A stretch of 64,000 nt of DNA from Chiloscyllium plagiosum (taxonomy: Eukaryota), in the NCBI RefSeq assembly GCF_004010195.1, contig NC_057719.1, positions 1,045,945-1,109,944 of the forward strand. The letters are read 5' to 3'. Positions within the stretch are counted from its first letter, which is position 1. Each line of letters begins with the position of its first letter. This document shows, in pieces, positions 853 to 60,820 of this stretch. The position numbers and the translations under genes were made by a program. The notes beneath the pieces were generated by a model. It made no database searches. It saw only the letters and a list, made by a program, of their open reading frames with translations, and was not told where the DNA came from.

Positions 853-1237
853 TAGAGTTGTACAGAAACAGACCTTTCAATCCAACCCATCCATACTGAC
901 CAGATATCCTAAATTAGTCCCACCTGCCAGCACCCGGTCCATATCCCTCTAAACCCTTCCTATTCATATACCCATCATGAAGCCTTCTAAATGATGTAAT
1001 TGTACCAGCCTCCACCATTTCCTCTGGCAGCTCATTCATTACGCGGACCACCCTCTGCATGAACAAGTTGCCCCTTGGATCCTTTTTAAATCTTTCCCCT
1101 CTTACCATAAACCTATGCCGTCTGGTTTTGGTCTCCTGTACACTGGGGAAAAGACTTTGTCTATTTATCCTATCTGTGCCCCTCATGATTTTATAAACCT
1201 CTATAAGGTCACCCCTCAGCCTCCAATGCTCCAGGGA
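853..1237 (-). mobile_element. CR1 LINE 3' fragment
   Basis: ORF 914..1186 encodes CR1 C-terminal motifs (NLFMQRVVR..NELPEE..GLEGYGP). Confidence 0.85.
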
Positions 1238-2272
1238 ATTAAGCAGTTAAGTGAAATTTTCAGATTGGACAGGGAGAAACATTTGATTCACAGTTACATA
1301 TTGGTGTTGGGGAGTAAAAAGGATTTTGTTTTTGGTGTGTTTTGAAATATTTCAAACTGGGTTATTTTTAAATAGCTCGTCTTTTTCTCTTGTTGTTAAT
1401 TTTGCATAATAAACTTGCGCCATGTTAAAAATTAGCAGAATAAAAGTGATCTATCGAGCTAGGTTTTGTTCTGGGATCTGCCTTATCCAGTGGTTCATCA
1501 ACTGGGATCCAGACAGGAGTCTAAAGAACCTTCAGTTTTCCTGCAGCAATTCTTCACCGTGACCAGAGAGTACCAGCAGCAATCTTCCTAATATCTGACT
1601 CTGGCAATGCTGGTGAAGAGAGTGAGGCCAGAGAGTGAGCAGGGCTATTGTCATATTTTCGAGGAGAAAGTGAGGTTCCAGGTGAATTTGAGGTTGGGGT
1701 GGAAGATGTTAGTGGCTATTGTCATATTTATTTGCTCACGGCTGGATCCTCTGCTCATTTCCCCACTGCACAGTGTCCTGTACTGTGTCCTGTTCAGTTG
1801 ACCATTGGAGCTTTCCATTTTCAACTTCAATGAATTATGTGTTGTTGTTGCCAGTGGGTTATGTCTGCATCTCCTGCTTACCTGAACCCCCACCCCAACA
1901 CTGGTGACAGTTTTACTGTAACCAAAGCAGCCTCCTGATTCCAAACACCTCTGATCCAATTCTGATGGAGAGACACTGGACTCGAAATGTTAACTTTGCT
2001 TTCTCCCAACAAATGAGTTTCCCCAGCAGTTTCTGTTTTTGTTTCAGATCTTCAGTTTTTGTTTTATATTTTGTCTCTGATCAAGTCTCCTATTAACTTG
2101 CCTTGCACTAAGGGGAATGAGTGTAAATGCGAGTCATTTATGTATGGTTCCACCATTTAAAATGTAGTCTCTTCGTAATATGAAATACTGAAAATCCAAA
2201 GTGTGGATACTCTTGATACTGAGCTGTTGCTGTGGTTGGTAACTGTCACATTTTTTTTCCTCTACCTTACAG

Positions 2273-2348
2273 TCTGAAAAAGGTTGAAATTATCCAAAGG
2301 TGCAGAGAGCTCCTGCAAGACTGGAAGCCAGGTGGTTTGTTTGACTGA
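2273..2348 (+). CDS. Candidate terminal coding exon of an unidentified upstream gene (LKKVEIIQRCRELLQDWKPGGLFD*)
   Basis: Strong acceptor ttttttttcctctaccttacag; only one frame stays open; non-repetitive downstream sequence with AATAAA at 2504-2509. Protein not recognised. Confidence 0.35.
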
Positions 2349-3664
2349 GAACCTCCATGTGGTTAGAGCCATGTAGCAATACTGATTCTGCCTTACCATA
2401 TTGTGCCTGATTGATGGTATGCAAGTACAGTCAATAGCAGAAATTATAAAGCACACACTGACAATCAAAAATTCATACTGCTGTCACAACTTCTCAAAGT
2501 CTAAATAAATAATGAGTGTGACAGCTTTCCCCTAGATCATGTTGGTTTCAGTGTTTACACGCGCACACACACACAGTCTCTCTCTCTCTTCCTCCAACTT
2601 CTACATGTGATGCCTTTTTAGTTTCAAAAAAGATGAACATTAAAGGAACTGGGTTCCGTTCTGACACCCCACATCAGATCGGAGAGCTCCTGTCAGATTT
2701 CCCATGCTGTGTGACAGCACATTCCAGGCACTGACCACTCTCTGTGTAAAGAAACCTGTCTCTCACATCCCCTTTAAACTTCCCCATTTTACCATAAATC
2801 TATGTCTCCTAGTGATTGACATTTCCATCCTGGGAAAGAGGCTCCTACTGTCCATTCTATCTATGCCGCTCATCATTTTGTAAACTTTAAATTTCTAATA
2901 TTTAGCATCCATCATCTTATTGTTATTACTGATGGATTAAATTAGATTTTAAAAAAGATAAATATTGACCAAGAAAGGCTGCGGTGACCACCCGACCTCA
3001 GATTGAGGGAACTCTGGGAGACCCAATTGGAATAAAGGAAACCAGCTCCACTGAAATTACCATTTTATCCGAGTCAGCATCAAGAAATGTTTACTTCACT
3101 TCCCTGCTCTCTCCTCATCACGGAAAACTGGGCCTGGCGATAAAACAAATTGAGAAAATAACCGTTGATCAGCAAATTAGATAAACATTGCCACTGCTGA
3201 GGATACCAGTCAATAATAAACTGTGGTCCCTAGGTTAAAAAGCTAATTCCTCAAGGTCTTCAACTTCTTTATTCTTCCTGTCTGTACCAGACAATCCCTC
3301 CCTTTTAAACTTGTTGCCTGTGTTTGTGTGTGTGTGTTTAATAAACAATGCATGAGTAATAAAACTCTTTCTTATACATGAGAAAACCTGGTAATTAACT
3401 TCTCTGTTTTGAACTGGAAAACCACATTTCCAATTGCTTAAGAAAAGATGAGCTAAGTACCCATCCTCCCCTAGGTATTACATACTCATCTCCTTACTAA
3501 CACCCACCCATTTCCACATACTCCAAATCACTGGGCTTCAGCCATCTCTGTTCCACGTCCTGCTGGGATGCTCATTTATGCCTTTATTACCTCGACATGC
3601 GACTATTTCAGTGCAATCTTGACCGTGACAGACACACGCCAAGGGTGTGAGAGAATGCCTTTTT

Positions 3665-4220
3665 CATAATTCACTCACAGAATGAGTGTGTCATTGGATA
3701 GACCAGCATCTATCGCCCGTCCCTAATTACCCAGAGGCAGTTAAGAGTCACCCACATTGCTGTGGGTCTGGAGTCACATGTAGGCCCGACCAGATGAGAA
3801 TGGCAGTTTCCTCCCCTAAAGGACAGATGGGTTTTTCCCCTGACAATTGGCAGAGGATTCATTGTTATCATTAGACTCTTAATTCCAGGAGGCTTTTTTA
3901 AAACCAAAATCAAATTGTACCATCTGCCATGGCAGGATTTGAGCCTAGGTCCCCAGCACTTTACCTGGGTCTCTGGCTTAATAGTCCAGATAGTGCCACT
4001 AGACCATTGCCTCCTCTTGGAAATATATTGCCGTCTCTTCAGTGTCGCTGGGTCAAAATCCTGGAATTCCCTCCCTAAGGGCATTGTGGGTCAACCCACA
4101 GCAGATGGACTGGAGCAGGTCAAGAAGGCAGCTCACCCCTACCTTCTCAATGGGCAACTAGGGACGGGCAGTAAATGCTGGGCCCAGCCAGCGATGTACA
4201 ATGAGTCAATAAAAAGCTAA
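3665..4220. mobile_element. Second shark tRNA-head SINE (-, ~3665-4015) plus RTE-like LINE 3' end (+, ~4018-4220)
   Basis: The same SINE recurs at ~14480-14800 (+), ~31630-31940 (-), ~40230-40575 (-) and ~56645-56985 (+). The 3' piece gives FSVAGSKSWNSLP..KKAAHPYLL. Confidence 0.7.
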
Positions 4221-24455: not shown

Positions 24456-25938
24456 GTGCCAGGCTAGTTCTAGCCATGTTATTGCCAGCTGGGTATCAAT
24501 GAGTTTGTTTTTCTTGGTGAATAGCCTCAGATTGACAACTGAGAGGTAACCACATAGATATGTTTAAGGTGATGACGGGTTTATAGGGAGTGAGTACAGA
24601 CATAGAGATGACAATCAGACAGTCTAGATTATAGTTGAGTGTGCCTATTCCTGATGAAGGGCTTTAGCCCGAAACGTCGATCCTTCTGCTCCTCGGACGT
24701 TGCCTGACCTGCTGTGCTTTTCCAGTACCACACACTCGACTCTAATCTCCAGCATTGCGGTCCTCACTTTCTCCCTGTCTAGGTTATAGACAGAGTAATG
24801 AAAGTCAGTGTGCCATTTCTCCTCTTGTTAGCTTGCTGCTCCTGCCTGTCTACTTTCATTGGCTGGTGTAACACAGACATTCAGGTCTCTTTGTAGATCC
24901 ACACTTCCCAGTAGATCACTATTTAAATAATACTCTGCTTTCGCTGTGTTTCACACGGAAGTCACACTTAATCACATTGTGCTGTATCTGTCACATGTTT
25001 ATCCACTCACTCACTTGTCTAAATCACCTGAAGCCTCCTTGCACTCTCCTCACAATCCCACCCACCAAACTTGTGTCGTTGGCAAATTTGGAATGTTGTA
25101 TTCAGTTCCCTCATCCAGGTCATTGATATAAACCATGAGGAGCTGGGGCCCAAGTACTGATCCCTGTGGAACCCCACTCGTCACTGCCTGTCCAACCAGA
25201 AAAAGACCCATTTACACCCACTCTCTGTTTCTGTCTGAGAACCAATCCTCCATCCATGATAAAATATCACCCCTGATCCCATCTCCCTCCCCCACCCCCT
25301 GTGCGTTAGCTTGGTCCACCAACCTCTTATAGGGGACCTCTTCAAAAAACCCTCTGAAAATCCAGATCCACCACATCCCTTATCCACTCCATTAGTCACA
25401 TCCTCAGAAAAACACTGCAGGAAAATTGCTTAGCATGAATTGCCTTTCATAAAGCCAGAAAGACTCAACAATAACTTTCAAAAGGAATTGAATTAACATT
25501 GAGAGGGAAAGCAGCCCAGAGTTTTCGCTGAGGAGGTGGGAGTATTTGGAATGGGCACAGATATGATGGGTCGAGTGGCCTGTTGCTGTGCTGTAGAATT
25601 CCTAGGTACCATTGGCTGGTGTGACTGTCTGTCTTTGGGATGTTCCATTGAAAGGTCATTAAGCTGAGACATCAACCTAGTCTCTCTCTCCACAGAGCTC
25701 CTCCAGCAATCTGCCTTTTATTTCAGGTTTCCAGTTCTAAGCCGTGGTCTTAATGTTGTACTAAGTGACCATTCTTTTTCCAGGTCTGAGATTAAACGGA
25801 AAGTGATCACTGATCAGAGAGATGTTAACGTGTGTCTGGGGTAGATGAGAAAACCCCCCTCAGGGTGTGACCATAACCTGAAATTGCGGTGAAGGTACAA
25901 GCCAGATGGAGGTGACTATCCCATAATCCTCAGCTGTC

Positions 25939-28053
25939 ATGAACAAGTACAAGGCAAAGACTGGATTGGTGAGGAAGCTAACCAGAGGAGGCCCTCCCAA
26001 GTTATTCCTCATGAAAACCAAGAAAGGAGATCATCCAAAGGGAAGCCAAGGCGGGATGGAGGGCAATTGCAGGTTTCGGAGGAATCAGGCTGGAGTGACC
26101 ACCTCTGACCTCCAGGAGGATGAGGCAACTGGAGCCTGGACGAGGGGCAACCGTTCTGAGGTTCCCAATGTCTCAGCGTGGTCCATGACCCCAGGGATTG
26201 ATGATTCAGTCTTTGAAGAGAGTGTGGCGAGTGGATATCCAGGAGAGGAAGATGAAGGAAAGGTGTGTCATTCCTCACTGAGCAAGCCCGGGGTCAGAGG
26301 ACAGGAAGGCCCCCTGATCCAGGCCCCTGTCAAACACGGAATCAAATCGGGGAAGGGAGCGAGAGTGAGAAGGAAGAGGTGGACCAAGGGAGTGAGGGGG
26401 TCAGGCACTGCCTGGAGATCTCTGATCTGTGTGAAGAAAACGAGACAGCACCAAGAGGAGGAGGAGGAGGAGGAAGGGTCTCCGAATGGTCAGCGAGTGG
26501 CTCAGACTCTGATCAAGGCTGAGAGGGAGGGCCGGAGCTGCCTTCCTGCACAGATAGCTGAGTGTCAGGGAGACGTTCCTGGACCCCCCTGGCACAGTAC
26601 TGCAGGCTGCGACTCGAACCTCTCCTCACCAAGAGGGCCTGGCCTCAGTGCTCAAGCCCAGGAAGATCCCAGTGAACCCAAAGCAGCCCTCCAGGAAGGG
26701 GAACCGGAGTTTCAGAGATCGGGCAGTCGCTCCAAGCTGAGGAGAAGGTCCAGCGGCTGGGCTTCCTTCAGGTACCTCATGAAGTCGAGAAAGGACTGGA
26801 GAAGTTTCGCCGAGAGAAACACTGATCTCTCAGGCAGCCAGAACCAGTCGGAGACCGGAATCCTACCGGATTCCCAGGAATCTGAACTAACTGCCTCATC
26901 CGACTCAAAGGCATCGCTCAGAAAGCAAATCGGAGAGGAGGGAGACCGGAGTCCAAGTGAAAATTCCGAGGCAGCTGCCTATTGCTCAAGTCCCCCACAT
27001 GCAGATAATGAAACCCTTCATTCCCAAACGGTGGCCGTGTCACTGAATAAGCACCAAGATCCTTCAGTACCAGATGCCTCTAAGGATTCCCAGGCTGAGA
27101 TCCACTGGGACAGGGTGGAAGAGAGAGTCATGATCAAAGGATCTCCCCCAGCAACATCTCAGGATGAGGTGGAGCTTTCCAATGACAATGGGCAAGAGAC
27201 ATTGGTTGATAGCAGACAAGATGGCAGCCAGTGGTCATGTGACTTTGAGTTTGTGCCATTGATACCACAGGGAATGCAATGTGAGATTGGCAGTGCCAAA
27301 GTAAACCCATCTTACCCTCTGGGCACTGATGGGTTTCCAGGTCATTTACAGGAAAAGTTGACTCTAGATGCTTTAGGACCTGTTATCGAGACAGAGAGAC
27401 AAGAGCTGGCGAGGGGAATGCAGTCTGATTCCAGACTCGCTCCAATAGAACGTGCTGATTTGCAAAGGCCAAGCACCATTCTGTTGCAATCACTCCCATT
27501 GACAAAGGAAGAAACATCCCCAGAGCCATTGACCATTGAGAAGGCTGCACAGAATCCAATCCAGGAGTCAGCTGAACAGCAATGGTGCAATCTCACTGAG
27601 TTAAGCATCAGGAAGACCACAAATCCTGGCTGCTTCTCTCCAAATGGTAACACTAAGCAAGTACAAGATGTGCAGGTGGGTGCGACTGGGACATCACTGG
27701 GATTTATTGAACAAGGAATAAACATTGTTAGAGCCACTGCTCCCCCCGACTGTGGCTCTGTCCGTTCCCCCAGCTGCTCTGAGGAAGATGTTACTGCTGG
27801 ATGTCAAGGTCATCACCGTGTGAATTGGGATGGCTTGTCAGAGGAGGGGTGCTGGGCAGCAGATGGGCAAGGAGACACTGACCCTCTGAGTGATGTTGTT
27901 CCTGGAGCAGGGAGCCAGGAGGCAGCCTTACTTCACACAGCCTCCTGTATTGTGCAGTCAGCGATGCAGGCTGCAGTGGAGCAAGTGGCTGGAGAAACTG
28001 CGATGACAATCCTTCCAGAAAACTGTCCCCTGTCGGAACCTCGGGATTCATAG
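25939..28053 (+). CDS. AKAP5: A-kinase anchoring protein, AKAP5-like (single coding exon, 704 aa)
   Basis: Low-complexity protein with WSK-type basic motifs (TAWRSLICVKK, SGWASFRYLMKSRK) and a C-terminal PKA-RII-binding amphipathic helix ALLHTASCIVQSAMQAAVEQVAGE. Convergent with ZBTB25, as AKAP5 is in mammals. Acceptor attctttttccag at 25783; in-frame TAA at 25924 precedes the ATG. Confidence 0.75.
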   Translation: MNKYKAKTGLVRKLTRGGPPKLFLMKTKKGDHPKGSQGGMEGNCRFRRNQAGVTTSDLQEDEATGAWTRGNRSEVPNVSAWSMTPGIDDSVFEESVASGYPGEEDEGKVCHSSLSKPGVRGQEGPLIQAPVKHGIKSGKGARVRRKRWTKGVRGSGTAWRSLICVKKTRQHQEEEEEEEGSPNGQRVAQTLIKAEREGRSCLPAQIAECQGDVPGPPWHSTAGCDSNLSSPRGPGLSAQAQEDPSEPKAALQEGEPEFQRSGSRSKLRRRSSGWASFRYLMKSRKDWRSFAERNTDLSGSQNQSETGILPDSQESELTASSDSKASLRKQIGEEGDRSPSENSEAAAYCSSPPHADNETLHSQTVAVSLNKHQDPSVPDASKDSQAEIHWDRVEERVMIKGSPPATSQDEVELSNDNGQETLVDSRQDGSQWSCDFEFVPLIPQGMQCEIGSAKVNPSYPLGTDGFPGHLQEKLTLDALGPVIETERQELARGMQSDSRLAPIERADLQRPSTILLQSLPLTKEETSPEPLTIEKAAQNPIQESAEQQWCNLTELSIRKTTNPGCFSPNGNTKQVQDVQVGATGTSLGFIEQGINIVRATAPPDCGSVRSPSCSEEDVTAGCQGHHRVNWDGLSEEGCWAADGQGDTDPLSDVVPGAGSQEAALLHTASCIVQSAMQAAVEQVAGETAMTILPENCPLSEPRDS

Positions 28054-44724: not shown

Positions 44725-45449
44725 TTCACTTTTAAAATCCATCTACCGTTTCAAAAAAAAAACACATACTAAAAGAAAGTTACAAATTGATGAATTCAAT
44801 GTCTTATTTCTACTACAGTTCTCAGAAGCACTGCTGAATTCAGCTTTCAGTTTGACCAACACAGTGCATGGGGGCTCAGAGCTGCTGTGTGTTGGTTCAA
44901 AGCTCTGTCCAGCTGTCATCGCCTCCTCCACACACCTTCCATCCCTCAATCACTTCCAGGTGTCCATATCCATGGGCGGCCAGCTGGGTACAGGTTACAG
45001 AGAGCACCGTGAGTAAAGTTCCCCGGATATGGCTGTGTGGCCAACACGAGAGAGTGTCTATCCAACCGCACCAAGTGAGATCTGGGCAGTGTCTCCCTGT
45101 GACACAGATCATTTGGTAACGTTCAGAGTCTGATATCACTCGAACTGAGGGAGGAGGATTCTGAACATCAGTTGTGTGGGACCTGAAGTGTTAACTCTTT
45201 TCCCCCTCTGTCCACTGATGACGCTAGCTGCTGAGTTTCTCCAGCATTTTCTGTTTTTGTTTGAGATCTGTAGCGATTTCAGGTACTTTGCTGGCAGCCA
45301 GGAGTAGGGTGTGTCTGAAAAGTTCTTTGTCGAACTACAGTGAGCTGCTGAACACATTGCGAGACAGGGAAAGGACTGGGGAAGGCCTCAGCAGGAACTC
45401 CCTCTGCCCTGGAGGTTATATACACCCGGGGTTCCGAGGCTCCAGACTC

Positions 45450-47965
45450 TCAATCGCAGAGGCTGTCGTCCGAGTCACTGTCCCCGTCCAGGGGAAGCTG
45501 CAGAACGCTCACAGCCTCGTCCAGCTCCTGTTGTAGCTGCTCCAGGTCCTGCTCACTCGGGAGGCACACATCCGGCGTCTCTGAGGAACATGACTCGGCT
45601 GCTTCCTCCCACTTGCCGGAGGGCAGAGGGGGCTTCTCCTGCACCGAGGACCCCACTCCCCCAGCGAACCGGCGACGCCTCTGCTGCAGGAACAGGAGCG
45701 CCGCCTCCTGGACAACCTGAGAACAGTCGGCGGTGCCAAACTCGGGCCCGTTGACACTGATGTGCATGAGGCTGTTGAGGAGCTGAGTGCTGGGCTCGGT
45801 GAGGAAGAAGCGGCTGCCTCGGAGCCGGGCAGTGATCCTCCGGAGAGCCCCTAGGCCGCGCTCGGACCAGCTGTTGGTGATGGGCATGGAGAGGGAGACC
45901 TCTGCCAGGGGCAGGAGGGCAGCACACGATCGGTGCAGCTCACTCTTGAGGGTGAAGAGTCGGCGGAGGCACCACTCAGTCACAGTCACCCGGGTATCGG
46001 TCAGCACCGAGTCCGGCACATTGTTCTTCCAGGTGTGCAGGTCGAACTTGAGCTTGGCCCACTCCCCGAGGAGCCGGGTTAGCTTAGTCTCTCCACCCTC
46101 TGCTTCCCGGTAGAAGTGGGCGGCCAGTGCCCGCATCTCGGGCTGACCGTACTCGGCAAAGTCCGCCGACTCCGGTGACGGCACCAGCAGTGGGTTGAAG
46201 ATGGAGAAAGCGGAGACCAGTGGCAAGGACGCTCCAAACCTGCGCTGCAAGTCGGCCTTGATAGCTGTCACGTAGGCGTCGAGCAGGGAGCACAGCTCGG
46301 CCTCTTGCTCTGGGCTGGGTGGCGGCAGACCAGCTGAGGCCAGGCGCCCAGAGGGCAGGAGGTCGGCCTGGAGCCTGCTCAGGGCCTCCCTGGAACCTGC
46401 CGCCTCGTTCAGCTTGTAGACGGTGTACTTGATGGAAGGCTCCAGGGTGAAGTAATTCACCGTGCCCTTGCGAAAGACCTTGCTGAGGCCAGCCAGGATG
46501 GGAGAGACTTCCTGCAGGATGTAGAGGGCCCCAGCAAAGCGCACGCTCCTCAGCTGGGTCACTAGGCCACAGGCTGTAGCGTCGGCCTGCTCCAGCTGGC
46601 TCAGGGCCTGCAGTAGGGCTGCGTAGTCGTTGTAAGCCCCTTCCACTGAGGCCTGCAAGGAAAGCCGTCTCCTCCGGCAAGCCCTCTTCAGCCTACGCAG
46701 CAGAGCCGCCTTCAGCCGCCCGCTGGGCAGGGCCTTCTCCAGCCTGACACTGAGGTAGGCCTCAGCCAGGACTGGGCACTTCTCCAGCAGCTCCCACAGC
46801 TGCTCCAGGTAGGATTCCACCCTGAGGAGGTAGCGACAGTCCGGGCAAGACGAGGCTCCCGCCAGCATCAGGCGGTGACACAGGCAGTGGAAGGCGATGA
46901 GGGACGGGTTGAGTTCCTGCAGCCTGGTGGCCACCCCAACACGCTCCGAGGTCATGACCTCGCCACCGTCAGTCACCAGTGAGGCCATACGCTGGACAGG
47001 CAGCTCCAGCCGGGCCATGGTGCGGCTGATCAGTCCAGCCAGCTCCTCAGACGGGTCAGTCTCCGGGCTGAAGCGGGCGGCCTGCACGAAGAGGAAGCTG
47101 GTCGACACCTCGGCCGTCTTGGGGTCGACGTACTGGACAAAAGCCATCAGGGCGGCTGAGTCCTCAGCCTCAGCGCCTGGGCAGCCAGTCACCCGGTCGC
47201 ACAGCAGGCCATAGCAGCCGGCCTGCCTGACCCGAGCCACCAGGCGGTTACGGATCACCTGCCCCAGCGAGACAAACACCTCACGCAGGGTGTCCGGTCG
47301 GCGGAAGTGGGTGGCCCCTTTCAGGCCGGCCTCGGCTAACAGCCTCAGCACTGACAGCAGCTTGGCAGTGGGCAGCTCCTCGCGGGCTAACCAGTAGGCA
47401 GCCAGGAAGAGCGCGTGGAGAGCCGCGCCCTCCTCTTTCTCCTTCTCCGCCATCTCCCTCTCGGACATACGGCCAGTCAGCTCTGCGTGCACTGCAGCCG
47501 CGTGCTGCTGAGATTCGGCATGGACCTGCAGCGCTGACTTCTTGTAGCGGACGGCAGGAGTGCCGTTGAACACCTTGGTCTTGTTCTGCTTGTTCTGGGT
47601 GTCGTGCCGGCGGCACAGGTAACAGTACATACCCTGGCCCTCTTCGTACAGCAACCAGTAAATACCCGTCCGCTCGCAATACGTCAGGTCCCTGTCCGAC
47701 AGCCACTTGTGAACAAACTTGTCTCCCCTCCTGTAGTCAGGCTGCACCCGCTCACAGGCCAGCCGCTGGCATTTGTAGTGGGCGTGAACCTGTGCTGAGT
47801 CATACTGCGCAAAGACCTCACGGAATGCAGCCTCCAGCTCCGCGACCTGCCCGTCCTGGCTCTCGCTCGCCTCCTGCTGGTGTTTGCCAGAAGGCAAGTC
47901 CTCCCCTCCTGCTGGCTGAAACAATGACGATGGCGACGGGCTGATGCAGTCAGCGTCAGGAGAAT
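45450..47965 (-). CDS. Domesticated hAT-transposase-derived exon (C17orf113/ZNF862-like: TTF-type zinc finger, RNase H-like DDE core, hAT C-terminal dimerisation region); predicted terminal exon of ZBTB25
   Basis: Intact 843-codon ORF. Motifs: KW..YWL..MYCYLC..H-x4-H (TTF-like finger), LLCD262, VTD338GGEVM, HC366LCH369RL, PITNSWSE707RG..LRRI..RLR, LMHISVNGP (numbering from ORF 45450..47981). First ATG is only at residue ~118, inside the finger. Acceptor ctcac..tgcctttgtgtgtcttgtcctgtag|AT is phase 1. Confidence 0.88.
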
Positions 47966-48922
47966 CTACAGGACAAGACACACAAAGGCAACACCGTGAG
48001 TATCACCGGAAAATATCCGGGAACAGCAGGAAGGAGTTGCCTGCTCTTCCACCAACGATGTTTGGATTGTATTCCCTGTCACATCTTACCTCAAGGAATA
48101 ATGGAAGAATTGTCTTATCACAGGGTTACAGGGCGCGACAGGGTATACGGAGGGAGGATGCTACCCCCAAAATGGGTAGAAAATCACGGGACAAAGTTTC
48201 AGAATTAAGGGTCAGACCATCTTGGAGTAAAATGATGAGAAACCTCTTCACTCAGAGAGTGGTGAACTTCAGAAATTCTCTACCCCAAAAGGTTATGGAA
48301 GCTCAGTCACTGAAGAAGTTCAAGACAGAAATGGATATGTTTCTCCTTTTTAAAAACAAAAAGCAACAAAGGGACAGTGCACGTAAACAGTGTTGAAATG
48401 GAATCGCGGCAATTATCGCATTGAACGGCTGAGTGCACTCAAAGGGCTGAAGGGCCTCACCTGTTCGTATTTTATAGAATCCCTACAGTGCAGGTAGAGG
48501 CCACTCAGCCTATCGAGTCCATACTGACTCTACGAAGAGCATTCTACCCACCTCCCCTACCCTATCCCTGTAACCCTGCATTTCCCGTAGCTAAACCACC
48601 TAGCCTGCATGCCCCTGTACACTATGGGGCACTATGTACACTATGTACACTAGCTTAATCAATCCACCCTAACCTGCAGGTCTTTGGGCTGTGGGAGAAC
48701 CAGACTATCCAGACAAGGGGAGCACATCCAAACCTGCTCGCACATCCAAACCTGCTCAGACAAGGGGAGCACATCCAAATTCCACACAGAGAGCCACCCA
48801 AAGTTGGAATCGAACCTCTCCCCCTGGCGATTTTTGAACGGTCAGCAAGTTGATTACCAAACAGGCCAAGAACAATCCTATTAGAGACAAAAAAAACTCT
48901 GCAGATAGTGGATTCCACAGTA

Positions 48923-49088
48923 GACAGGCAGGAGGCTGGAGAAACACAGCAAGCCAGGCAGCATCAGGAGGGACAGGCAGGAGGCTGGGGGAACACAGCA
49001 AGCCAGGCAGCATCAGGAGGGACAGGCAGGAGGCTGGGGGAACACAGCAAGCCAGGCAGCATCAGGAGGGACAGGCAGGAGGCTGGGG
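48923..49088. repeat. 49-bp tandem repeat running into a gap
   Basis: GACAGGCAGGAGGCTGGGGGAACACAGCAAGCCAGGCAGCATCAGGAGG, 3+ copies; resembles a Penelope terminus. Confidence 0.8.
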
Positions 49089-49476
49089 NNNNNNNNNNNN
49101 NNNNNNNNNNNNNNNNNNNNNNNNNNNNNNNNNNNNNNNNNNNNNNNNNNNNNNNNNNNNNNNNNNNNNNNNNNNNNNNNNNNNNNNNNNNNNNNNNNNN
49201 NNNNNNNNNNNNNNNNNNNNNNNNNNNNNNNNNNNNNNNNNNNNNNNNNNNNNNNNNNNNNNNNNNNNNNNNNNNNNNNNNNNNNNNNNNNNNNNNNNNN
49301 NNNNNNNNNNNNNNNNNNNNNNNNNNNNNNNNNNNNNNNNNNNNNNNNNNNNNNNNNNNNNNNNNNNNNNNNNNNNNNNNNNNNNNNNNNNNNNNNNNNN
49401 NNNNNNNNNNNNNNNNNNNNNNNNNNNNNNNNNNNNNNNNNNNNNNNNNNNNNNNNNNNNNNNNNNNNNNNNNNNN

Positions 49477-50095
49477 CCGGTTGGTGGCAGGGAGGTGTGG
49501 AAGGGAGGGGGAGGGGCTGGGAAGGGAGTTGGGGGATGGGAAGGGAGGTTATTTGGAATTAGAGAATTCAATGTTGAGTCTCAAGGCTGTAGGCTGCCCA
49601 GGCAGAAGATGAGGTGTTGTTCCTCCAATTTACACTGTGGTTCATTGTGGCAACCGACGAGGTCAAGGATGGTCACATCAGAAAGGGAGTGGGAGGGGGA
49701 ATTGAAATGGGCGGTGACTGGGAGGTCCGGTCGGCCTCTGTGGGCTCTGCCGAGATGCTCGGCCAACCGTCCCCTAAGTTTACGTTCAGTCTCCTCGATG
49801 TAGAGAAGACCACAGCGGGAGCACCTGATGCAGTAAACTAGGTTGGAGGAGAGACAGGTGAACCTCTGTCTGACATGGAAGGGCTGTTTGGGGCCCTGGA
49901 TGGAGGTGAGGGCGTTTGGTGTGCTGACAGGTTTTGCATCTTTTCTGGTTGCAGGGGAAGGTACCCAGGGGGTCAGTGGGGGGAGGGGGTTGGTTAGTGG
50001 GGAGGGTGGCACAAACCAAGGACTGGCAAAGGGAACAGTCCTTGCGGAAGGCAGAGAGGGGTGGGGAGGGGAAGAGGTTCTTGGTGATGGGGTCT
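49477..50095 (-). mobile_element. Penelope-like element, GIY-YIG endonuclease fragment
   Basis: GTFPCNQKRCKTC..FTCLSSNLVYCIRCSRCGLLYIEETERKLRGRLAEH..VTAHFN..LEEQHLIFCLGSLQP; frameshifted. Confidence 0.9.
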
Positions 50096-50111
50096 AGTTG
50101 AAGTTGGTGGA

Positions 50112-50792
50112 GTACATGTAAATCCTGTCCCTCAGGATTCCCTCCAACAACTTGCCCCCCACCGATGTCAGGCTCACTGGTCTATACTTCTCTGGCTGGT
50201 CCTTACCACCTTTCTTATATAGTGGCACCACGTTAGCCAACCTCCAGTCTTCTGGCACCTCAGCTATGACTGTCGACAAATATCTCAGCAAGAGGCCCAA
50301 CAATCACTTCCCTAGCTTCCTAGAGTTCTAGGGTCCACTTGATCAGTTCCTGGGGATTTATCCACTTTAACACGTTTTAAGAAATCCAGCACTTCTTCCT
50401 CTATAATATGTACATTTTTTATGATGTCACCATCTATTTCCCCACATTCTGTATCTTCCATGTCCTTGTCCACAGTAAACACTGATGCAAAATACTTGTT
50501 TAGTATCTCCCCCGTCTCCTGTTGTTCCATACATAGGCTGCCTTGCAGATCTTTCTGGGGCCCTATTCTCTCCCTAGTTACCCTTTTGTCCTTAATATAT
50601 TTATAAAATCCCTTTGGATTCTCCTTAATGCTGTTTGCCAAAGCTATCTCATGTCCCCTTTTTGCCCTCCTGATTTCCCTCTTAAGTATACTCCCACTAC
50701 TGCCTTTATACTCTAAGGATTCACCCGATCTCTGCTGTCCAAAACTGACATATGCTTCCTTCTTTTTCTTAACCAAAGCCTCAATTTCTCTA
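50112..50792 (-). mobile_element. CR1 ORF2 internal fragment
   Basis: IKENPKGFYKYI..LNKYFASVFT..KSPGTD..VPEDWRLANVVPLYKKG..YRPVSLTSV. Confidence 0.9.
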
Positions 50793-53186
50793 GATTGAGC
50801 TAACTTTGTGAACTGTTGCTGTAGGTAGGAGCATCCACAAGCCCTTTGGGAGGGAATTCTAGGGTTTTGACTCAGCAATACTGAAGGAATGGCGAAATAC
50901 TTCCAAGTCAGGATGGTGAATGGCTCGGAGGGGAACTTGCAGGGGGTGGTGTTCCCATATATCTGCTGCCCTTGTCCTTCTAGGTGGAAGCAGTCATGGG
51001 TTTGGAAGGTGCTGTCTGAGGGTCTTTGGTGAGTTTCTGCAGTGCATCTTGTAGATGGTACACACTGCTGCTACTGAGTGTTGGTGGTGGAGGGAGTGGG
51101 TGTTTGTGAATGCGGTGCCAATCAAGTGGCTGCTTTGTCCTCGATGGTGAAAAACTTCTTGAGTGTTGTTGGAGCTGCCCCCATCCAGGCAAGTGGGGAG
51201 TATTCCATCACACTCCTGACTTGTGCCTTGTAGATGGTGGTCAGGGTTTGGAGTCAGGAGGTGAGTTACTTACTACAGGATTCCTTGTCTTTGACCTGCT
51301 CTTAGAAGCATAAAATCCTTACAGTGTGGAAAGAGACCATTCAGCCCATAGAGACCACACTGACACTCCGAAGACCATCCTGCCCAGACCCAAACCCCCT
51401 ATCCTAACCCCGTAACGCTGCATTTCCCTCAGCTAACCTTGTACCATCGGTATTTTTATGGCAAGTCAATGCTGAAGACTCTGACAGTAACATTGTCTGT
51501 AAGGTTTGGCTCCGTGTGTTGGACCATTGCACACTATTGCTCGACTAGTCCGAGATACAGCTCTCCCAGTTTTGACCTTAGCCCCTAGATAATGGTCAGG
51601 AGGGTTTACAGAGTGATAGGGCTGAGGTTGCTGTTGGCGTGCCCAAGCTTAATGCCAATGGCCAGTCCAGTTTCATTTCTCTGTTTAGATTTTGTAGCGC
51701 TTTGATGCAACTAAGTGACCAAGTAACGATAATCAAGCACACTCGTCATTCTTACCACCACTGAGACAAGCATTCAATTCTAGATTATTCAGTGAATTTA
51801 AATTTCACCAGCTGCTGAAGGCACAGGAGCAGCAGTAGGCCATTCAGCCCATCAAGTCTGCTCCACCAATCAATAATATCATGACTGATCTGATATCCTT
51901 TAACTTCACGTTTCTGCCTTTCCCTCTCTTGGTTCCCTGAAAAATCTGTCTATCACAACCTTGACCATAGTTAACGACCTGGCCTTGGCACTCCTCAGCA
52001 GCCAAGAATTCCACAGATTCAATCCCCTCAGAGAAGAAATTCCTCAACTCGGTCTTACTGTGAGATGATGCCTTCTGGTCCTAGAAACTCCCACAAGCAG
52101 AAAAACCTTTCTGCATCTACCTTGTCAAGCTCCTTGTAAAGAGTCATTACACCCGAAATGTCAACTCTGCACGTTCTCCCGTATCTGCATGGATTTCCTC
52201 CGGGTGCTCCAGTTTCCTCCCGCAGTCTAAAGATGTGCAGGTCAGGTGGATTGGCCATGATAAATTACCCCATAGTGTTCAAAGATGTGTAGGTTAGGTG
52301 CTTTAGCCATAGGAAATGCGTTGATAGGTAGGGGAATGGGAATGGGTAGATGCTCTTCAGAGGGTTGGTGTGGACTAGGGCCCTAATGACCTTCTTCCAC
52401 ACTGTAGGGATTCTAAGAAATTTCTCTCCACAGATGCTGCCACACTTTCCAGCAATTTCTGGTTTTGTTGTTAAGAATTTTGTATATTTCAATAAAATGA
52501 CCTCTCTTTTTCTAAACTCCAATGAGTACAGGCCAACCCACTCAATCCCTCCACATGAGAGTTCCTCCATCCCTGGGAACAGCTGCGTGACCCTTCTCTG
52601 GTCTGCCTCCAATGCCAATGTATCTTTCACAAATAATGGGTCCAAAACTGTCCACAATATTCCAGTTGAAGTCTAACTGACGCCTTGTATAGCTTTAACA
52701 AGACCTCTCTGTTTTTATACTTCACTCCCTTTTAATGAAAAGCCAACATTCCATTTGTCTTACCCGTAACCTGCTGAGCTTGGACATTAACCGTCTGAGA
52801 CTCATGTGCAAAGACTCCCTAATTAATTTGTGCTGTAGCTTTCTGCAAATCACCCCCCAGTTCAATTATATTCTGCTCCTCTATTCTTCCTGTCGAAGTA
52901 TAAAACATCACATATCCCACACTATATTCCATCCACCTGCTTACTTACCCTGCCTTTCTCCCTCTATTAACTGTGAGTCATCTTCACCTTCCCACCTGCT
53001 GTTGTGTCATCTGCAAATCTGGTGATAGCATATTTTACCCTCCGAGCCATTAAAACATTTTAGAAACAACTGTGGCCCCAACACTGATTTTTATGGATTC
53101 TGTCCTGAAAACGTCCTCTTTATCCCAACTATGTCTTCTGTTAATTATGATGTGGAGGTGCCTGCGTTGGACCGAGGTGGGCACAA

Positions 53187-54004
53187 TTAAAAATCACACA
53201 ACACCAGGTTATAGTCCAACAGGTTTAATTGGAAGTGCAAGCTTTCAGAGTGCTGCTCCTTCGTCAGGTAACTAGTGGGGCAGGATCACAGGACACGGAA
53301 TTTTAGTAAACGATTAAAGTGTCATACAACTGATGTGATGTATAGAATTAACCTAGATTGCTGTTACGTCTTTAATCACTTATAATGGGGATGCAGATTT
53401 CAATCAATTCTTATGTAAATTTCAGAACATCTTTCAATTCACAGTCCCGAGATAACTTAAGGTTTTATCAGTATATAAATAAAAAATACTTCAGCTCAGA
53501 CAATGCATTAAAGATGTGAGGTTAGAGTATGTTCAATTTGCAAAGTAGGAATTTATAAAATGTCACACAGACTGACCGCCTACAGATTGTGTGCTTTTTG
53601 AACAAAATAGAATGTACCTGCAAATCTGCAACTGCAAGCTCAAAGTTGGAATACAGACAGACTCTTACCTCACATCTTTAACTCATTGTCCGAGTTGAGA
53701 TGTCACTTTTTTTATATACTCATAAAACCTTAAGTTATCTCGGGACTGTGAATTGAAAGATGTTCTGGAATTTACATAATAATTGATTGAAATGTCAATC
53801 CCCATTCTAAGTGATTAAAGATGTAACAGCAATCTAGGTTTGTTCAATATATCATATCAGTTGTATGACACTTTGATCTTTTACTATAATCTCTGTGTCC
53901 TACGATCCTGCTCCACTAGCTACCTGATGAAGGAGCAGCGCTCCAAAAGCTTGTACTTTCAAATAAACCTGTTGGACTATAACCTAGTGTTATGTGATTT
54001 TTAA
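53187..54004. mobile_element. Penelope-like termini in inverted arrangement (~340-bp arms)
   Basis: ~53187-53530 is the approximate reverse complement of ~53665-54004; degenerate hammerhead CTGATGAAGGAGCAGCGCTCCAAAAGC at ~53924. Confidence 0.75.
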
Positions 54005-55360
54005 CTTCTATGAATTAGCCAGCTCTCAGGCCGTACTAACTTAAATAGGAGAAAGTGAGGACTGCAGATGCTGGAGATCAGAGCTGAAAATGTGTTGCTG
54101 GATAAGGGCAGCAGGTTAGGCAGCATCCAAGGAGCAGGAGAATTGACATTTCCGGCATAAGCCCTTCTTCAGGAATGAAAGAGGGGCTTATGCCCGAAAC
54201 GTCGATTCTCCTGCTCCTTGGATGCTGCCTGACCTGCTGCGCTTTTCCAGCAACACATTTTTCAGCTCGTACTAACTTAAGTCCTCAGCTTGAAGTGGAG
54301 GGATACAGGGCTCAGAAAACAACCAGATGCCCAGGCTGCCTGTGTGGGAGAGCAGGCCATTAGTTATCGCTGACTTAAGGCAGGCCTTAAACGATAGGGA
54401 AATGTTAGGAATTACGCAGAAGCTGCCAGCAGCAAGAACAATCAATGCATTCGGAGTCAAACATTGCAGAGAGTTTATCTAAATAAACCCACAATCAGAT
54501 AACCAAAAACATAGTTAAAGGTAAGTTTTAAAGAATGTGTTAAAGAAGCATTCCAAGAGGCAGAGGAAGAGAGAATTCTCGATAAAAAAACAAAGGAACT
54601 GTGGATACTGTAATCAGAAACAAAAACAGAAGTGGCTGGAAAAGCTCAGCAGGACTGACAGCACCTGTGAAGAGAAATCAGAGTTATTGTTTGAGGCCCG
54701 GTGACCCTTCCTTGGAACTCAGTTCTCTCTATAGATGCTGCCAGACCTGCTGAGCTTTCCCAGCTATTTCTGTTTTTGTTTCCATGTTAAGAGAAAATTC
54801 TAGGATTTGTGACACAAGTAACCAAAGGCACAGCTGCCAATGGTGCAGTGAATAGAATTACGGGATGCTGTCATTAGAAGACTCAGCAATAAAGTTTCAG
54901 CTTTGATCTCCAGCGTCTGCAGACCTCACTTTCTCCACAAGTAACCAAAGGCACAGCTGCCAATGGTGCAGTGAATAGAATTACGGGATGCTGTCATTAG
55001 AAGACTGGACATACATTTCGGCGAGTTGAGAGGCTGGAGACGATCACAGAGATCAGGAGGGATGTGAACTTGGAGAGGTCAGAGAGCGAAGGAATGCAGG
55101 TTCTACCTGGAGAACAACCGGCTGTCTTCAGGTATGGGACCCAAAGCTCAGGATTAGCTGAGGTCCTGGCGGATGTGGAGTTTCAACCAGTGCAGTTCAC
55201 AGCCAGCTCCCCCCCACACCCATCCCCCATCTCACTATCAAGTGACCCTTACCCCAGCCCCAAACACTAAAACCATTCGTTGCCCCTCAGGCTCTTCTTA
55301 GCTCCCCTACAGCCGCAGCCCCTCCCCATTGCTCAAGCCCCAGGCTTTTCAGACACTCAC

Positions 55361-56232
55361 GGCCACAGACACTGCAGGCAAACTTCCTTCGCTTGGCAAT
55401 GCCAAAGCTGCTGGAGGTCTCGACCGTATCCCCGCTGGCATCAATGGTCAGCGTCAAGGCAACTGGAGGCTGCTCATCCAGGCTGGTACTGTCCTGTTGG
55501 TCGAGTGGTGAGAGGAGGGGCTCAGTCCCCGAACTCTGGACCCCCTCGGGTTTCTCTGCCTCCTCGCCGGGCTCCGAAGGGTCAGCGAAGGTCCGGCTCT
55601 GTGAGGTGATCCCATGGGGGAGCGCTCCACTGGCGTGAGAGTACAAGTGATCGCGCAGACTGCTCCGCACGCTGAACCGCTCTCCACAGTAGTGGCACGA
55701 GTAGAGTTTATGGTGTTTGCCCCGCTTGAAGTTGAGGCCGGGGACCTGCAGCCCAGCTGAGGGTCCGCCCCGGGAACCCGCCGACAGGTTCTGGCTGTGA
55801 TCGTCCGACACTAGCTGTCCAGCAGAGTCCTGGCTGCTAGCCGTGATCACCGGGGCGCGGGCGTACCGATGCTCGGGGATGTTGGACGGCACACCAACTG
55901 ATACTTGGCAGAGTGGGTCTGCGCCCTGGCTCGACGCGCCACTCCGACTGCTGGAAGGCTGGAGGTCCCTCACGGTCAGCTTCTGGGAGCCAGAGATCTG
56001 GATGCCGTACAGGTTGGGCGACTGCAGAGGCAGCACGTCAGGATGCTGGACGAAGACCTGCCCAGCGTGGCCCGCCTCATGGACCAGGTTGTAGGCATGC
56101 AGGAAGCGGATGCCCTCCTCCAGGCGGTTTGGATCCACGGGCTGTTTCGGACCTTTGCCTGTGTACATCAGGTGCAGCAGGTAGCTGAAGATGTCTGGCT
56201 GTATGTCCACTGGCTGGACCTTGATATAGTCG
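55361..56232 (-). CDS. ZBTB25: ZBTB25 coding exon 2 (rest of BTB, C2H2 finger 1, first half of finger 2)
   Basis: Acceptor ttctgttttgcccgacag|C restores [53 protein letters not shown] and CHYCGERFSVRSSLRDHLYSHASGALPHG match ZBTB25 rather than ZBTB2. Ends KRRKFACSVCG-C|GTGAGT (phase 1). Confidence 0.9.
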
Positions 56233-57449
56233 CTGTCGGGCAAAACAGAAGCCAAAGAGTTAAACTCCCGCTGCGCGCTCTCTTCAAAACTTACTCCAAA
56301 AGCGTCAACCCACACCATCACACCGGAGACACCAAACAGAGAGAGGTCAAACCAAACGCCTCAAGTGGGTGTAAGAGAACAGACCGCTGTGATTTCAATG
56401 CAGAGCAGCGTTCTCTCTGGTGTCCTAGCCTCAGTCTTACCATCAACCAGGATAATCAGGCCCCTGTCATATCGCTGGATGGGAGGTTGCTGTGCACTAA
56501 GCTGTTGACTACATTTTCTTCCTGTGACGCACATTGGGATGGCGTGGAATCGTGAAACTGCTTTGGAAATGCAGGCTTTGCAAAGTGATAGTCGTCTTTG
56601 TCTCAGTGGACATAGCTTGATCCCTCATTAAAGCGACACAACTAGGGGAGGGCATGGTCTAGTGGTATTATTGCTTTATTGTTAACCCAGAGACCCAGCT
56701 AATGTTCTGGGGACACTGGTTCAATTCCGCCAGATGGTGGAATTCAAATTCAATAAAAATCTGGAATTAAGAATCTAATGATGACTATGTTCATTGTCGA
56801 TTGTCAGAAAAACTCATCTGGCTCCCTGATGTCCTTTAGGGGAAGAAAATCTCAATCTTCTACGGTCTTGCCTGCATGTGACTCCACACCCACAACAATA
56901 TGGTTGACTCCTAACTGCCCTCTTGGCAATTAGGGATGGACAATAAATACTGGCCTGGCCAGCCTCATCCCGTGAATGAATAAAAATTGGAGGTGGGCCA
57001 ATCTAGAGCCACTGCTGCGTATCAGACCATGTGGAGTAAGAGGGCGCCCGGGTGGTGACTTGTATCAGCTCAGAAATTGAACCTATGCCATGGGGCTGCA
57101 TCGAAAGCCAGTCATGCAGCTAACTGCTCCCATACTGGAACAGTTCAAAGCAGCAGTCATTGTCCTGCCAAATAGGGCAGTAGGATAGGGCAGCACTTAG
57201 TCAGGTATTAGACAAATAAACTCAGGATTTAGAAGCTGGGGATGTAAGGGTAGCCTCCAACCCCAAACTAACCAATAACAGAATGAGGAAGAGATCAAAG
57301 GTGAGGGAGATGAAGGGAGGGAGAGAGACAGGCAGAGAGAGACAGGCAGAGAGAGCGAGAGAGAGACAGGCAGAGAGAGAGAGAGAGAGAGACAGGCAGA
57401 GAGAGACAGACAGGCAAGCAGAGAGAGAGAGGGAGAGAGACGGACAGGC

Positions 57450-57535: not shown

Positions 57536-57708
57536 CTTGACTGATGAATAAAAATCATTTTGAAGTAATTGGAAAATGCAGCCAGCACTGATCGATGAGC
57601 TTTAAAGTGAATGTCCCCAACTGCAACGGTGCAGTCACACAGGAAACCAAACTCCCTCTGGATATTCAACTGTTGCAGCAGCACCAGTCCATGATTAGCT
57701 ACATCCAT
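57536..57708 (-). CDS. ZBTB25: ZBTB25 coding exon 1 (N-terminal half of BTB/POZ domain)
   Basis: [57 protein letters not shown] closely matches the ZBTB25/ZBTB2 N-terminus. ATG at 57708; acceptor tcctacag 9 nt upstream (exon starts 57717); donor AG|GTAAG at 57536/57535; 173 coding nt, phase 2. Confidence 0.93.
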
Positions 57709-58740: not shown

Positions 58741-60820
58741 TGATAAAGTATTGGGGAAATAATAGCTAAATCCTCCATTTTGTAAGTCTCCTTTTTGTGA
58801 TAATAACTTGCCTTTTAAAATGGCTAAGCACAGTGACCATGAGAATGGAACAAGGACTGCATGAATCCTGGCATAAACCAGTCAGTGAAGGAACAGACAA
58901 GGACAGAGAAAAAATGCATTAGATTCTGGTGACTTTGATGACATTGGGGGGTGAAAATGTGTTGCTGGAAAAGCGCAGCAGGTCAGGCAACATCCAAGGA
59001 GCAGGAGAATCGACTTTTCGGGCATGAGCCCTTCTTCAGGAATGAAGGAATTTACTTTGGGAGCAGAAGGTTTTCATGCTGACACTGTTTTGTCTCTGGG
59101 AAAGCGACCAAGACGATCTAAACATCTCAATGCCTTTTTGTATTTGGCTTATCAAAGTGCCCAAATGATGGGAAAAGTTGGGTATGTGCTCAACTTTTGC
59201 CACCCGATTCACAGGGGGTTATCCCTCTTTAGCCTCTCTCTTTTAGCTGGCCTGAGGTGGCCAAACAACTAATACGCTGGACCTCCTGGGATAAAATTGA
59301 GCAATGGCAGTCAGTAGGTATGAAATGACCCTGGTCTGGGATTGGTAGCAATCTGGCTACAACAGATCCCATATACCCCCTTTCCTGGTAGTCCTTAATA
59401 ATACTATTAATGACATTATTTGTTTTAGTAAAAATGGGAGCATCTCTAGTGGCTTATATATGGGGACTAGTCGATGCTGTTTAACTATCCCATGGATTGA
59501 ACCAAACCAAAATTTAACTAAATTTGGTTATTTTCTGTTTGATTGGTCCTCTGTTCTTAACAGAACATCACGGTCCCTTTAGAAGGGCCCTAATTCCAGG
59601 GCATGGAAAGATGGATATTCTGGCCTAACCGCCTATAACGGCACCTATTTTGTTTGCGGGTTCAAGGCCTACCCATGGCTCCCCTCAAACGAATGGGGAT
59701 CATGTCATATCGGGTATGCGGTTCCCCTTATTCGGGTTTTAGACAGGTTGCCTTCACCTCCGAGGATGAAGAGGTACCTCCCTGATCTTCTCATGTTTAT
59801 TGGGATGGATCCCCCCCACTGGCATTCATTGACAGGGAACCAAATTAGGTAGATTAAGAATAATACTGGAAATTGTCGCCAATAATACTGCAGATACCAT
59901 GACTAATATCATGCTGATATGGTCGCGATCAGGACAGTGACCCTTCAGAATCATTTGGTCTTGGACTTTCTACTAGCTGAGGAGGGTGGCCCTTGTGCAT
60001 TGTAGGAAAGGAATGCTGCACCTACATTTCTGACAGATTCTCCCCAGGCACATTAGCCAGGAGGTCCAGAAACTTAATGTAATGGATCATGATAAGATCA
60101 GTAGTTTTACTGGATGGTGACCATTTAAAGGTCTCTTTGGGAGTATTGGTGGCATTTCTTTTTCATTTTGGGACTTTATTACTTAATGTAATTGTCTGCA
60201 TTCTTGCATTCAAATGCTTATGGTCATTGATATCTTGATTGCTTTTGTCGTAAACTTTAGGAATGGCCCAGTTGATCATGAAATGATCAAAAGGAGGGAA
60301 TGATAAAGTATTGGGGAAATAACAGCTAAAATTCTCAATTTTGTAAGTCTCCTTTTTGCAATAATAACTTGCCTTTTAAAATGGCTAAGCACAGTGACCA
60401 TGAGAATGGACCAAGGAATGTATGAATCCTGGCATAATCAAGTATCTGTCTGTTTCCCAAACAGGTGCTATAACGGAATATTGATTGTAACCTAGGTATT
60501 ATCTCAGTGATGCAAATAACACCACATTAACAGTATTGTTTATTTTGTGTGAGAAACAACACTAATGTATGAATTACCTCAAGAGAACCTAATTAAGACT
60601 AGAAGCATTATATGGTGGGAATCAGAGCAAAATGATATGATTACGCAAAATAAGGGTACAAATTATGCTGCCACTTTAAGATTTTGAAATGTTTTGAGCT
60701 TATTCAGGGTCATCTCTTTGATACCCTGAGTTTTGCTAATTGATCTGCCAGCCGGCCCGATAACAATAAAAGAGTGCTATTTTGCAACCTTCAAGAGGTC
60801 CGAGAATTTTTAAATTTACA
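58741..60820 (+). mobile_element. Deleted endogenous retrovirus: truncated 5' LTR, decayed gamma-type env, PPT, full 3' LTR (60301-60820)
   Basis: TG..CA ends with CTCC/CTCT 4-bp TSD splitting a CR1. 58741-58876 matches the start of the 3' LTR. PPT AAAAGGAGGGAA. Env motifs GTYFVCG..AYPWLP..WGSC, furin site RMKR, LQNHLVLDFLLAEEGG and C..GKECCTYI; frameshifted. Confidence 0.88.

Follow-up and report, generated by a model that had tools for sequence, protein, structure and literature searches.

Why does the ZBTB25 gene of the shark Chiloscyllium plagiosum end an exon in the middle of its second zinc finger, and how did the transposase exon that follows come to be joined there? An earlier note on this DNA had placed a splice donor inside that finger and took the donor itself as the means by which the transposase exon was captured. 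The question was addressed within the window, a stretch of 64,000 nucleotides (assembly GCF_004010195.1, contig NC_057719.1, positions 1,045,945 to 1,109,944, renumbered from 1), and by comparison with ZBTB25 proteins of other vertebrates. The features concerned are the following, a slash marking a splice boundary here and throughout:

57536..57708, minus strand: ZBTB25 coding exon 1, the N-terminal half of the BTB domain, with a phase-2 GT donor at its end; the joined coding sequence equals model P0021 (0 mismatches)
55361..56232, minus strand: ZBTB25 coding exon 2, carrying the C-terminal half of BTB, a linker, finger 1, a basic patch and the CxxCG half of finger 2; contig pieces stop at 55361
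55635..55703, minus strand: intact C2H2 finger 1 (Pfam zf-C2H2, E = 2e-4, under the curated cut-off; 20 of 23 columns invariant across 16 cartilaginous fishes)
55362..55376, minus strand: orphan CxxCG of finger 2 (C344, C347, G348)
55355..55361, minus strand: phase-1 splice donor C/GTGAGT inside finger 2, from the joined frame and the contigs
55326..55360, minus strand: start of the intron, probably what erosion has left of the second half of finger 2, and a codon short of the bony-vertebrate length (modest significance)
55287..55289, minus strand: read-through stop codon, with the first polyA-like hexamer ~1.9 kb downstream
47966..55360, minus strand: intron 2, 7395 nt including 388 N, 3' end TGTAG, from the joined frame
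45450..47965, minus strand: terminal exon, a hAT-derived transposase of ~838 codons, which starts with AT so that C+AT encodes His349
47475..47657, minus strand: zf-C17orf113 (TTF-type) zinc finger of the transposase part (Pfam PF25431, E = 1.9e-9, over the cut-off)

The three exons were joined by script and gave a BTB–zinc finger–hAT protein of 1186 aa, in which host domain and transposase domain share one reading frame. This frame is identical to the Chiloscyllium plagiosum model XP_043552827.1 ('zinc finger protein 862-like'). The joint of exon 2 and the transposase exon is already predicted in databases, where it is filed as 'ZNF862-like'. The donor at 55361/55360 is in phase 1 and its partner acceptor reads tgtag/AT, with the exon running from 47965. 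The AG at 47967-47966 is the sole one that follows a pyrimidine tract in the matching phase; a further acceptor at 47917 (ttcag) was dropped, being in the wrong phase.

Use of the donor was followed in four sequence runs compared over 45000-56600. Three of them (X1, X5 and X6) are assembled contigs of presumed RNA origin, with the intron flanks skipped. Record 2 of X1 contains 55361-56234 at record positions 185-1058 and 45745-47965 at 1059-3279, an exact joint with no letters between. The same joint is found in record 17 of X6 (exon 2 at 183-1056, transposase exon at 1057-3789), while a piece of X5 record 15 terminates at 55361. The joint is thus present in 2 of the 4 runs and the donor end is seen in a third (probable RNA). 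The raw-read run X20 (single-cell polyA, 2% read) had zero depth over exon 2 and is silent on isoforms. An independent contig of 3605 nt (P0008) carries a whole fusion ORF of 1178 aa. The splice donor is functional, and the transposase exon is joined by splicing in these probable-RNA contigs. The position claimed for the donor was thereby borne out by the joined frame, by P0021 and by contigs X1 and X6; its hexamer, given in the earlier note as GTAAGT, is GTGAGT.

No read-through contig was found in the X1 or X6 runs, in which assembly loses rare isoforms. Read depth in the bin spanning the donor (55062-55448) is what the exon share by itself would give in X1 (4.24 vs 4.23) and X6 (5.68 vs 5.68), and in X5 the depth past the donor is slightly above it (2.37 vs 1.98). 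The proposal that the fusion is now the main isoform holds in so far as the spliced form is the one seen in contigs; its exclusivity, which we infer, is tempered by the small excess in X5. The fusion is likely to be effectively the sole product in the shark.

Two other parts of the window were noted. Upstream of the ZBTB25 coding start, 58768-60443 is bounded by a pair of 115-nt direct repeats that lie 1561 nt apart and are 92% alike, and the broken frames between them look env-like by motif alone. A Pfam search with one ORF within this repeat pair gave no match; the pair is possibly a decayed LTR element. On the plus strand, 25927-28053 is a single ORF of 708 aa with no Pfam match, which presumably resembles AKAP5, a neighbor of ZBTB25 in mammals.

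Reading through the donor on the minus strand (55394-55287) gives K-R-R-K-F-A-C-S-V-C-G-R-E-C-L-K-S-L-G-L-E-Q-W-G-G-A-A-A-V-G-E-L-R-R-A-stop, a CxxC with no His pair behind it, as had been described. The H-x3-H expected 12 residues past the CxxC is absent from the spliced and the read-through form alike, and the read-through frame stops 25 codons past the donor. Finger 2 is therefore no C2H2 finger in either form. The human ZBTB25 finger 2 given for comparison was right, as in the primate proteins P0219 and P0238, and so was the ZBTB2 finger CTICGRKF, which is found in mouse ZBTB2 (PMC8350017, supplement 5).

The exon that replaces the finger end was examined by profile and structure. A profile search among solved sequences returned Hermes only (E about 7e-5), and the ten best Foldseek matches to the transposase model were all Hermes (E 1e-8 to 1e-6). 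AlphaFold, run with an alignment of 69 rows, modelled the transposase part well, with a Hermes-like RNase H fold, an insertion domain and a C-terminal region. The D, D, E triad is kept in 7/7 sharks and CxxH in 6/7; the triad is changed in rays, in the chimaera (E to D) and in lobe-finned forms (first D to G). The tryptophan of the RW motif, present in 14/14 relatives, is found in 0/15 vertebrate proteins. In Hermes this tryptophan is needed for hairpin formation. Terminal inverted repeats were sought between the 2.5-kb flanks of the gene (the 5' flank being partly N), and no 12-mer inverted match was obtained. The last exon is a domesticated hAT domain, and the transposase part is likely not a working transposase.

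In a FastTree analysis with 14 relatives, the 15 vertebrate transposase domains formed one clade (support 1.0) that splits into cartilaginous and lobe-finned members, and the open frame is kept across all 15, in keeping with conservation of the transposase part under constraint at an orthologous locus. The nearest relatives are 33-41% identical, and one of them clusters with a bivalve protein. Rays have D/E swapped and have lost CxxH, and their proteins are far more diverged than those of sharks: the catalytic core is under unequal constraint in the two groups. A close relative of the shark transposase is joined to an unrelated host-like N-terminal region in a model of the bivalve Solemya velum (P0189), which may be a second fusion or a model artefact.

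How far the fusion extends was judged from the matches to the transposase, 13 of 14 of which also have a ZBTB25 part (sharks, rays, chimaera, coelacanth). The break inside the finger lies at the same place in all 16 cartilaginous fishes compared, among them sharks, rays and a chimaera. The residue after CxxCG is H in 14 of the 16, Y in the electric ray Narcine and R in a catshark read-through model. The read-through models start R-E-F in the catshark and R-E-S in the chimaera, which is consistent with the same C/GTGAG donor. In Narcine (P0016) the protein enters the transposase exon (C-G-Y-S-A-E), passes into tandemly repeated peptide and stops after 460 aa, a possible loss of the transposase or a mis-assembly.

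Bony vertebrates, whose long isoforms are known as gene models alone, join the same exon elsewhere. Coelacanth and lungfish have paired models, a short one reading H-T/G-K and a long one reading H-T/D; a newer coelacanth annotation has separate proteins of 436 aa and 705 aa instead of the fusion. Two caecilians have full fusion models, one with the joint H-K/D, and in the model of the caecilian Geotrypetes (P0202) the short-isoform tail is mostly retained and the transposase exon is reached from a third donor further down. Residues 378-456 of a gar protein (P0203) pass by H-T/D into a recognisable but shortened transposase start, which, read from this one sequence, is a fusion caught decaying in a ray-finned fish. 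The bony set comprised 94 of 95 proteins, P0289 being left out because it has no finger 2, and came from a search covering word-sharing relatives of 406-1294 aa. The transposase start is present in 5 of the 94, and the bichir, frog, reptile, bird and mammal matches within that search were short forms only. Many mammalian models (P0204-P0239) diverge directly after H-K (to A, G, E, V and others), with no transposase exon found; this suggests that the old donor may still be used for other exons in mammals.

The bony donor would be a G/GT-AAR in the T-G-K linker, after an intact finger, 17 codons (51 nt) downstream of the shark donor and in the same phase. The first codon of the joint is D (G+AT) in bony and H (C+AT) in cartilaginous forms, which implies one common ag/AT acceptor. 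Four bony lineages reach this acceptor, in this phase, from a donor past an intact finger. The capture therefore had no need of the shark donor and is an event far older than the shark; the mechanism put forward in the earlier note is, in that form, unsupported. The His pair of finger 2 is intact in 93/94 bony proteins. Mouse ZBTB2 likewise has a complete finger, followed by an H-T-G-K-P linker (PMC8350017, supplement 5), so the T-G-K linker is older than the fusion. From bony ZBTB25 and the paralog ZBTB2 taken together, the complete finger 2 is judged to be the ancestral state, and the fusion is likely older than the split between cartilaginous and bony vertebrates. No fusion was found in jawless fishes that could serve as an outgroup for polarity.

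These comparisons argue for a takeover: the in-finger donor replaced an older donor 17 codons downstream, and the rest of the finger became intron and has been eroding since. We give this order of events a probability of roughly 60%. A hAT element would have inserted downstream of ZBTB25 in the ancestor of jawed vertebrates. A latent G/GT-AAR donor in the T-G-K linker behind finger 2 would have spliced to it, so that it served as an alternative final exon and the gene made a short isoform and a long one, a pair that the models of coelacanth and lungfish appear still to display. A donor in the same phase, at the codon that follows CxxCG (C/GT), would have prevailed before the chimaera/elasmobranch split, and as it uses the old acceptor, the transposase frame was preserved. 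The His half, the old donor and the short-isoform tail, freed from constraint, would then have decayed, and this decay would explain why read-through now meets a stop so soon and the fusion is effectively the sole product. The shark protein is predicted to be a BTB-dimerising regulator that binds DNA through finger 1 and transposase-derived domains, and not a transposase.

The order may also have been the reverse. The ancestor could have had CGT-AAG-TTY (R-K-F) after CxxCG, a latent donor that would do no harm in a terminal exon and that captured the transposase alone or beside the downstream donor; bony fish would later have silenced it (CGT to CAT and the like), saving the finger, and cartilaginous fish would have retained the donor at the finger's cost. 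The paralog ZBTB2 does have R-K-F, so C/GT may be ancestral, and all three cartilaginous read-throughs begin with R. Histidine is the commonest residue at this site in bony ZBTB25 (71/94, with H-K-F in 51), and a single change separates its codon CAT from CGT, namely a CpG transition, which runs more easily from CGT to CAT. Donors into the transposase acceptor are also labile, as the Geotrypetes model illustrates. Against this order, R-K-F itself, on which the earlier note had relied as the ancestral reading, occurs in 0/94 bony ZBTB25 proteins: R is found in 17, only before T, A, M or G, and the early-branching lineages have F, Q, L or V. An extra loss would be required in bony fish, and the downstream donor suffices for capture with no finger sacrificed. 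We consider this sequence of events possible but unlikely.

The takeover also makes the intron start a former finger, and the earlier note had based this on the KS-x-x-LE that follows the donor. In the shark this motif stands one codon early relative to the bony-vertebrate finger, and an alignment needs a 3-nt deletion. The remnant was tested against a profile of ten bony lineages; the DNA test was anchored at the donor, with the donor hexamer unscored and one gap optimised in both observed and null sequences. In this one species, the best alignment with the 3-nt deletion gave P = 0.004-0.02 over 30 nt, 0.06-0.11 over 12 nt and 0.006-0.11 over 42 nt. The donor may have moved into the finger while the bases behind it are unrelated, replaced or fully randomised, so that KS-x-x-LE is a chance match. 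The one-codon gap is post hoc, significance is lacking in the DNA test over 12 nt and marginal over 42 nt, and the over 400 million years available for decay are long for a neutral remnant. Catshark and chimaera, which entered the test as read-through protein models (P0015, P0017) and not as DNA codons, gave P = 0.03 and P = 0.10-0.11 in the Chiloscyllium plagiosum register (combined 0.014), with support limited to codons 4-6; codons 7-12 gave P = 0.28 and 0.42, and the three cartilaginous read-throughs have just 2-3 of 11 residues in common. Chance is nevertheless improbable as the full explanation. The protein test on Chiloscyllium plagiosum gave P = 0.003-0.004 when the register was optimised for the null as well, and the three species together, register optimised and under a shared-ancestor null, gave P = 0.005-0.04, while three other registers, including the ungapped one and a two-codon gap, scored at chance. 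The literal motif occurred in 0 of 40,532 windows of 22 codons, a rough guide to rarity only, since the stop-blind expression missed the site itself or its frame.

A 51-nt in-frame deletion of the His half from the exon, with the ancestral donor kept, would account for the shared phase and acceptor at a single stroke. The intron start would then be the short-isoform tail (G-K-P-Y-R-Y...), and it matches the tail profile at chance only (P = 0.68-0.92 for DNA, 0.12-0.71 for protein). Ten tail queries found no tail remnant in intron 2, and the exon-2 matches of P0188 and P0282, two queries that began at finger 1, do not count as such. We regard such a deletion as very improbable. On the takeover, the shark intron start is probably eroded finger sequence, as the earlier note proposed, with thin support (P = 0.003-0.04 in the better tests) and with the spacing one codon short.

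The two cysteines left in the exon behave differently from their surroundings. C344, C347 and G348 are invariant in 16/16 cartilaginous fishes, and the preceding linker has 3 invariant columns of 72. A dead half-finger would not be expected to keep C344 and C347 in this way. The shift of the donor might have been a gain, the orphan CxxC binding zinc together with the His made at the joint (C+AT) and ligands from the transposase exon, or forming a Cys4 hook with the CxxC of the other BTB subunit; we hold this to be doubtful. If true, a new clasp would couple the BTB dimer to a transposase body that is still D-D-E in sharks, and splicing would have turned a DNA-reading finger into a structural clasp, locking a 450-million-year-old fusion that most tetrapods lost. 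Conservation of the CxxCG may have plainer causes, such as a splice-enhancer or a nuclear-import constraint. In the AlphaFold model residues 260-382 have low confidence, and 344-348 alone are near pLDDT 50. An Atlas search with finger 2 returned generic C2H2 clusters.

The ZBTB25 fusion belongs to the known class of host-transposase fusion (HTF) genes, for which Cosby et al. (bioRxiv 10.1101/2020.05.07.082677) describe KRABINER, SETMAR and CSB-PGBD3. In their account some lineages have the short isoform beside the fused one, and the fusion turns into the sole form with age. As in those genes, the ZBTB25 transposase sits on its own exon, captured by splicing, and isoforms coexist in some lineages. 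Unlike the genes of that main text, in which BTB and ZBTB have 0 mentions, the shark gene has BTB and C2H2 as its host part. It also differs from the HTF genes described there in an age greater than that of tetrapods and in that the end of the parental isoform can be traced to a visible step, a donor on the host side that lies inside a finger; among bony lineages some retain both forms, some a truncated exon, and others show the short form alone. Literature searches, which covered few subscription papers, found no report of a ZBTB25–transposase fusion, and ZBTB25 is not mentioned in the accessible part of PMC9004415.

The shark fusion shares its zinc finger (PF25431) and hAT fold with domesticated hAT proteins of the ZNF862 / C17orf113 type, under whose names it is filed; by BTB and fingers the gene is ZBTB25, and the likeness is one of domain and database name. 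With the transcription factors ZBTB25 and ZBTB2, as described in PMC8350017, it has in common the BTB domain, finger 1, the basic patch and the CxxC. Mouse ZBTB25 heterodimerises with ZBTB2 through BTB (PMC8350017). In the shark, unlike these factors, finger 2 is cut and the short C-terminal tail is swapped for ~838 transposase-derived residues. The change also resembles intronization, or an alternative 5' splice-site shift, as treated in PMC9612004: coding sequence becomes intron through a cryptic site, likely with a phase of alternative splicing. It differs from intronization as described there in that only the donor moves (51 nt, in frame), an existing intron is lengthened, a structured domain is cut and the outcome is fixed class-wide.

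Host-transposase fusions are thought to begin as minor splice variants, yet one seldom sees the step by which the parental form is lost. ZBTB25 offers several fates of one ancient capture: both isoforms in the coelacanth and lungfish models, a full fusion in those of caecilians, a stub in gar, nothing but short forms among the frog and amniote matches, and in cartilaginous fishes a fixed fusion whose finger is cut. A familiar human gene would thereby have an unrecognised transposase past, and in mammalian models the position of the old donor is still a branch point. What the unchanging orphan cysteines of the cartilaginous fishes do is a direct biochemical question.
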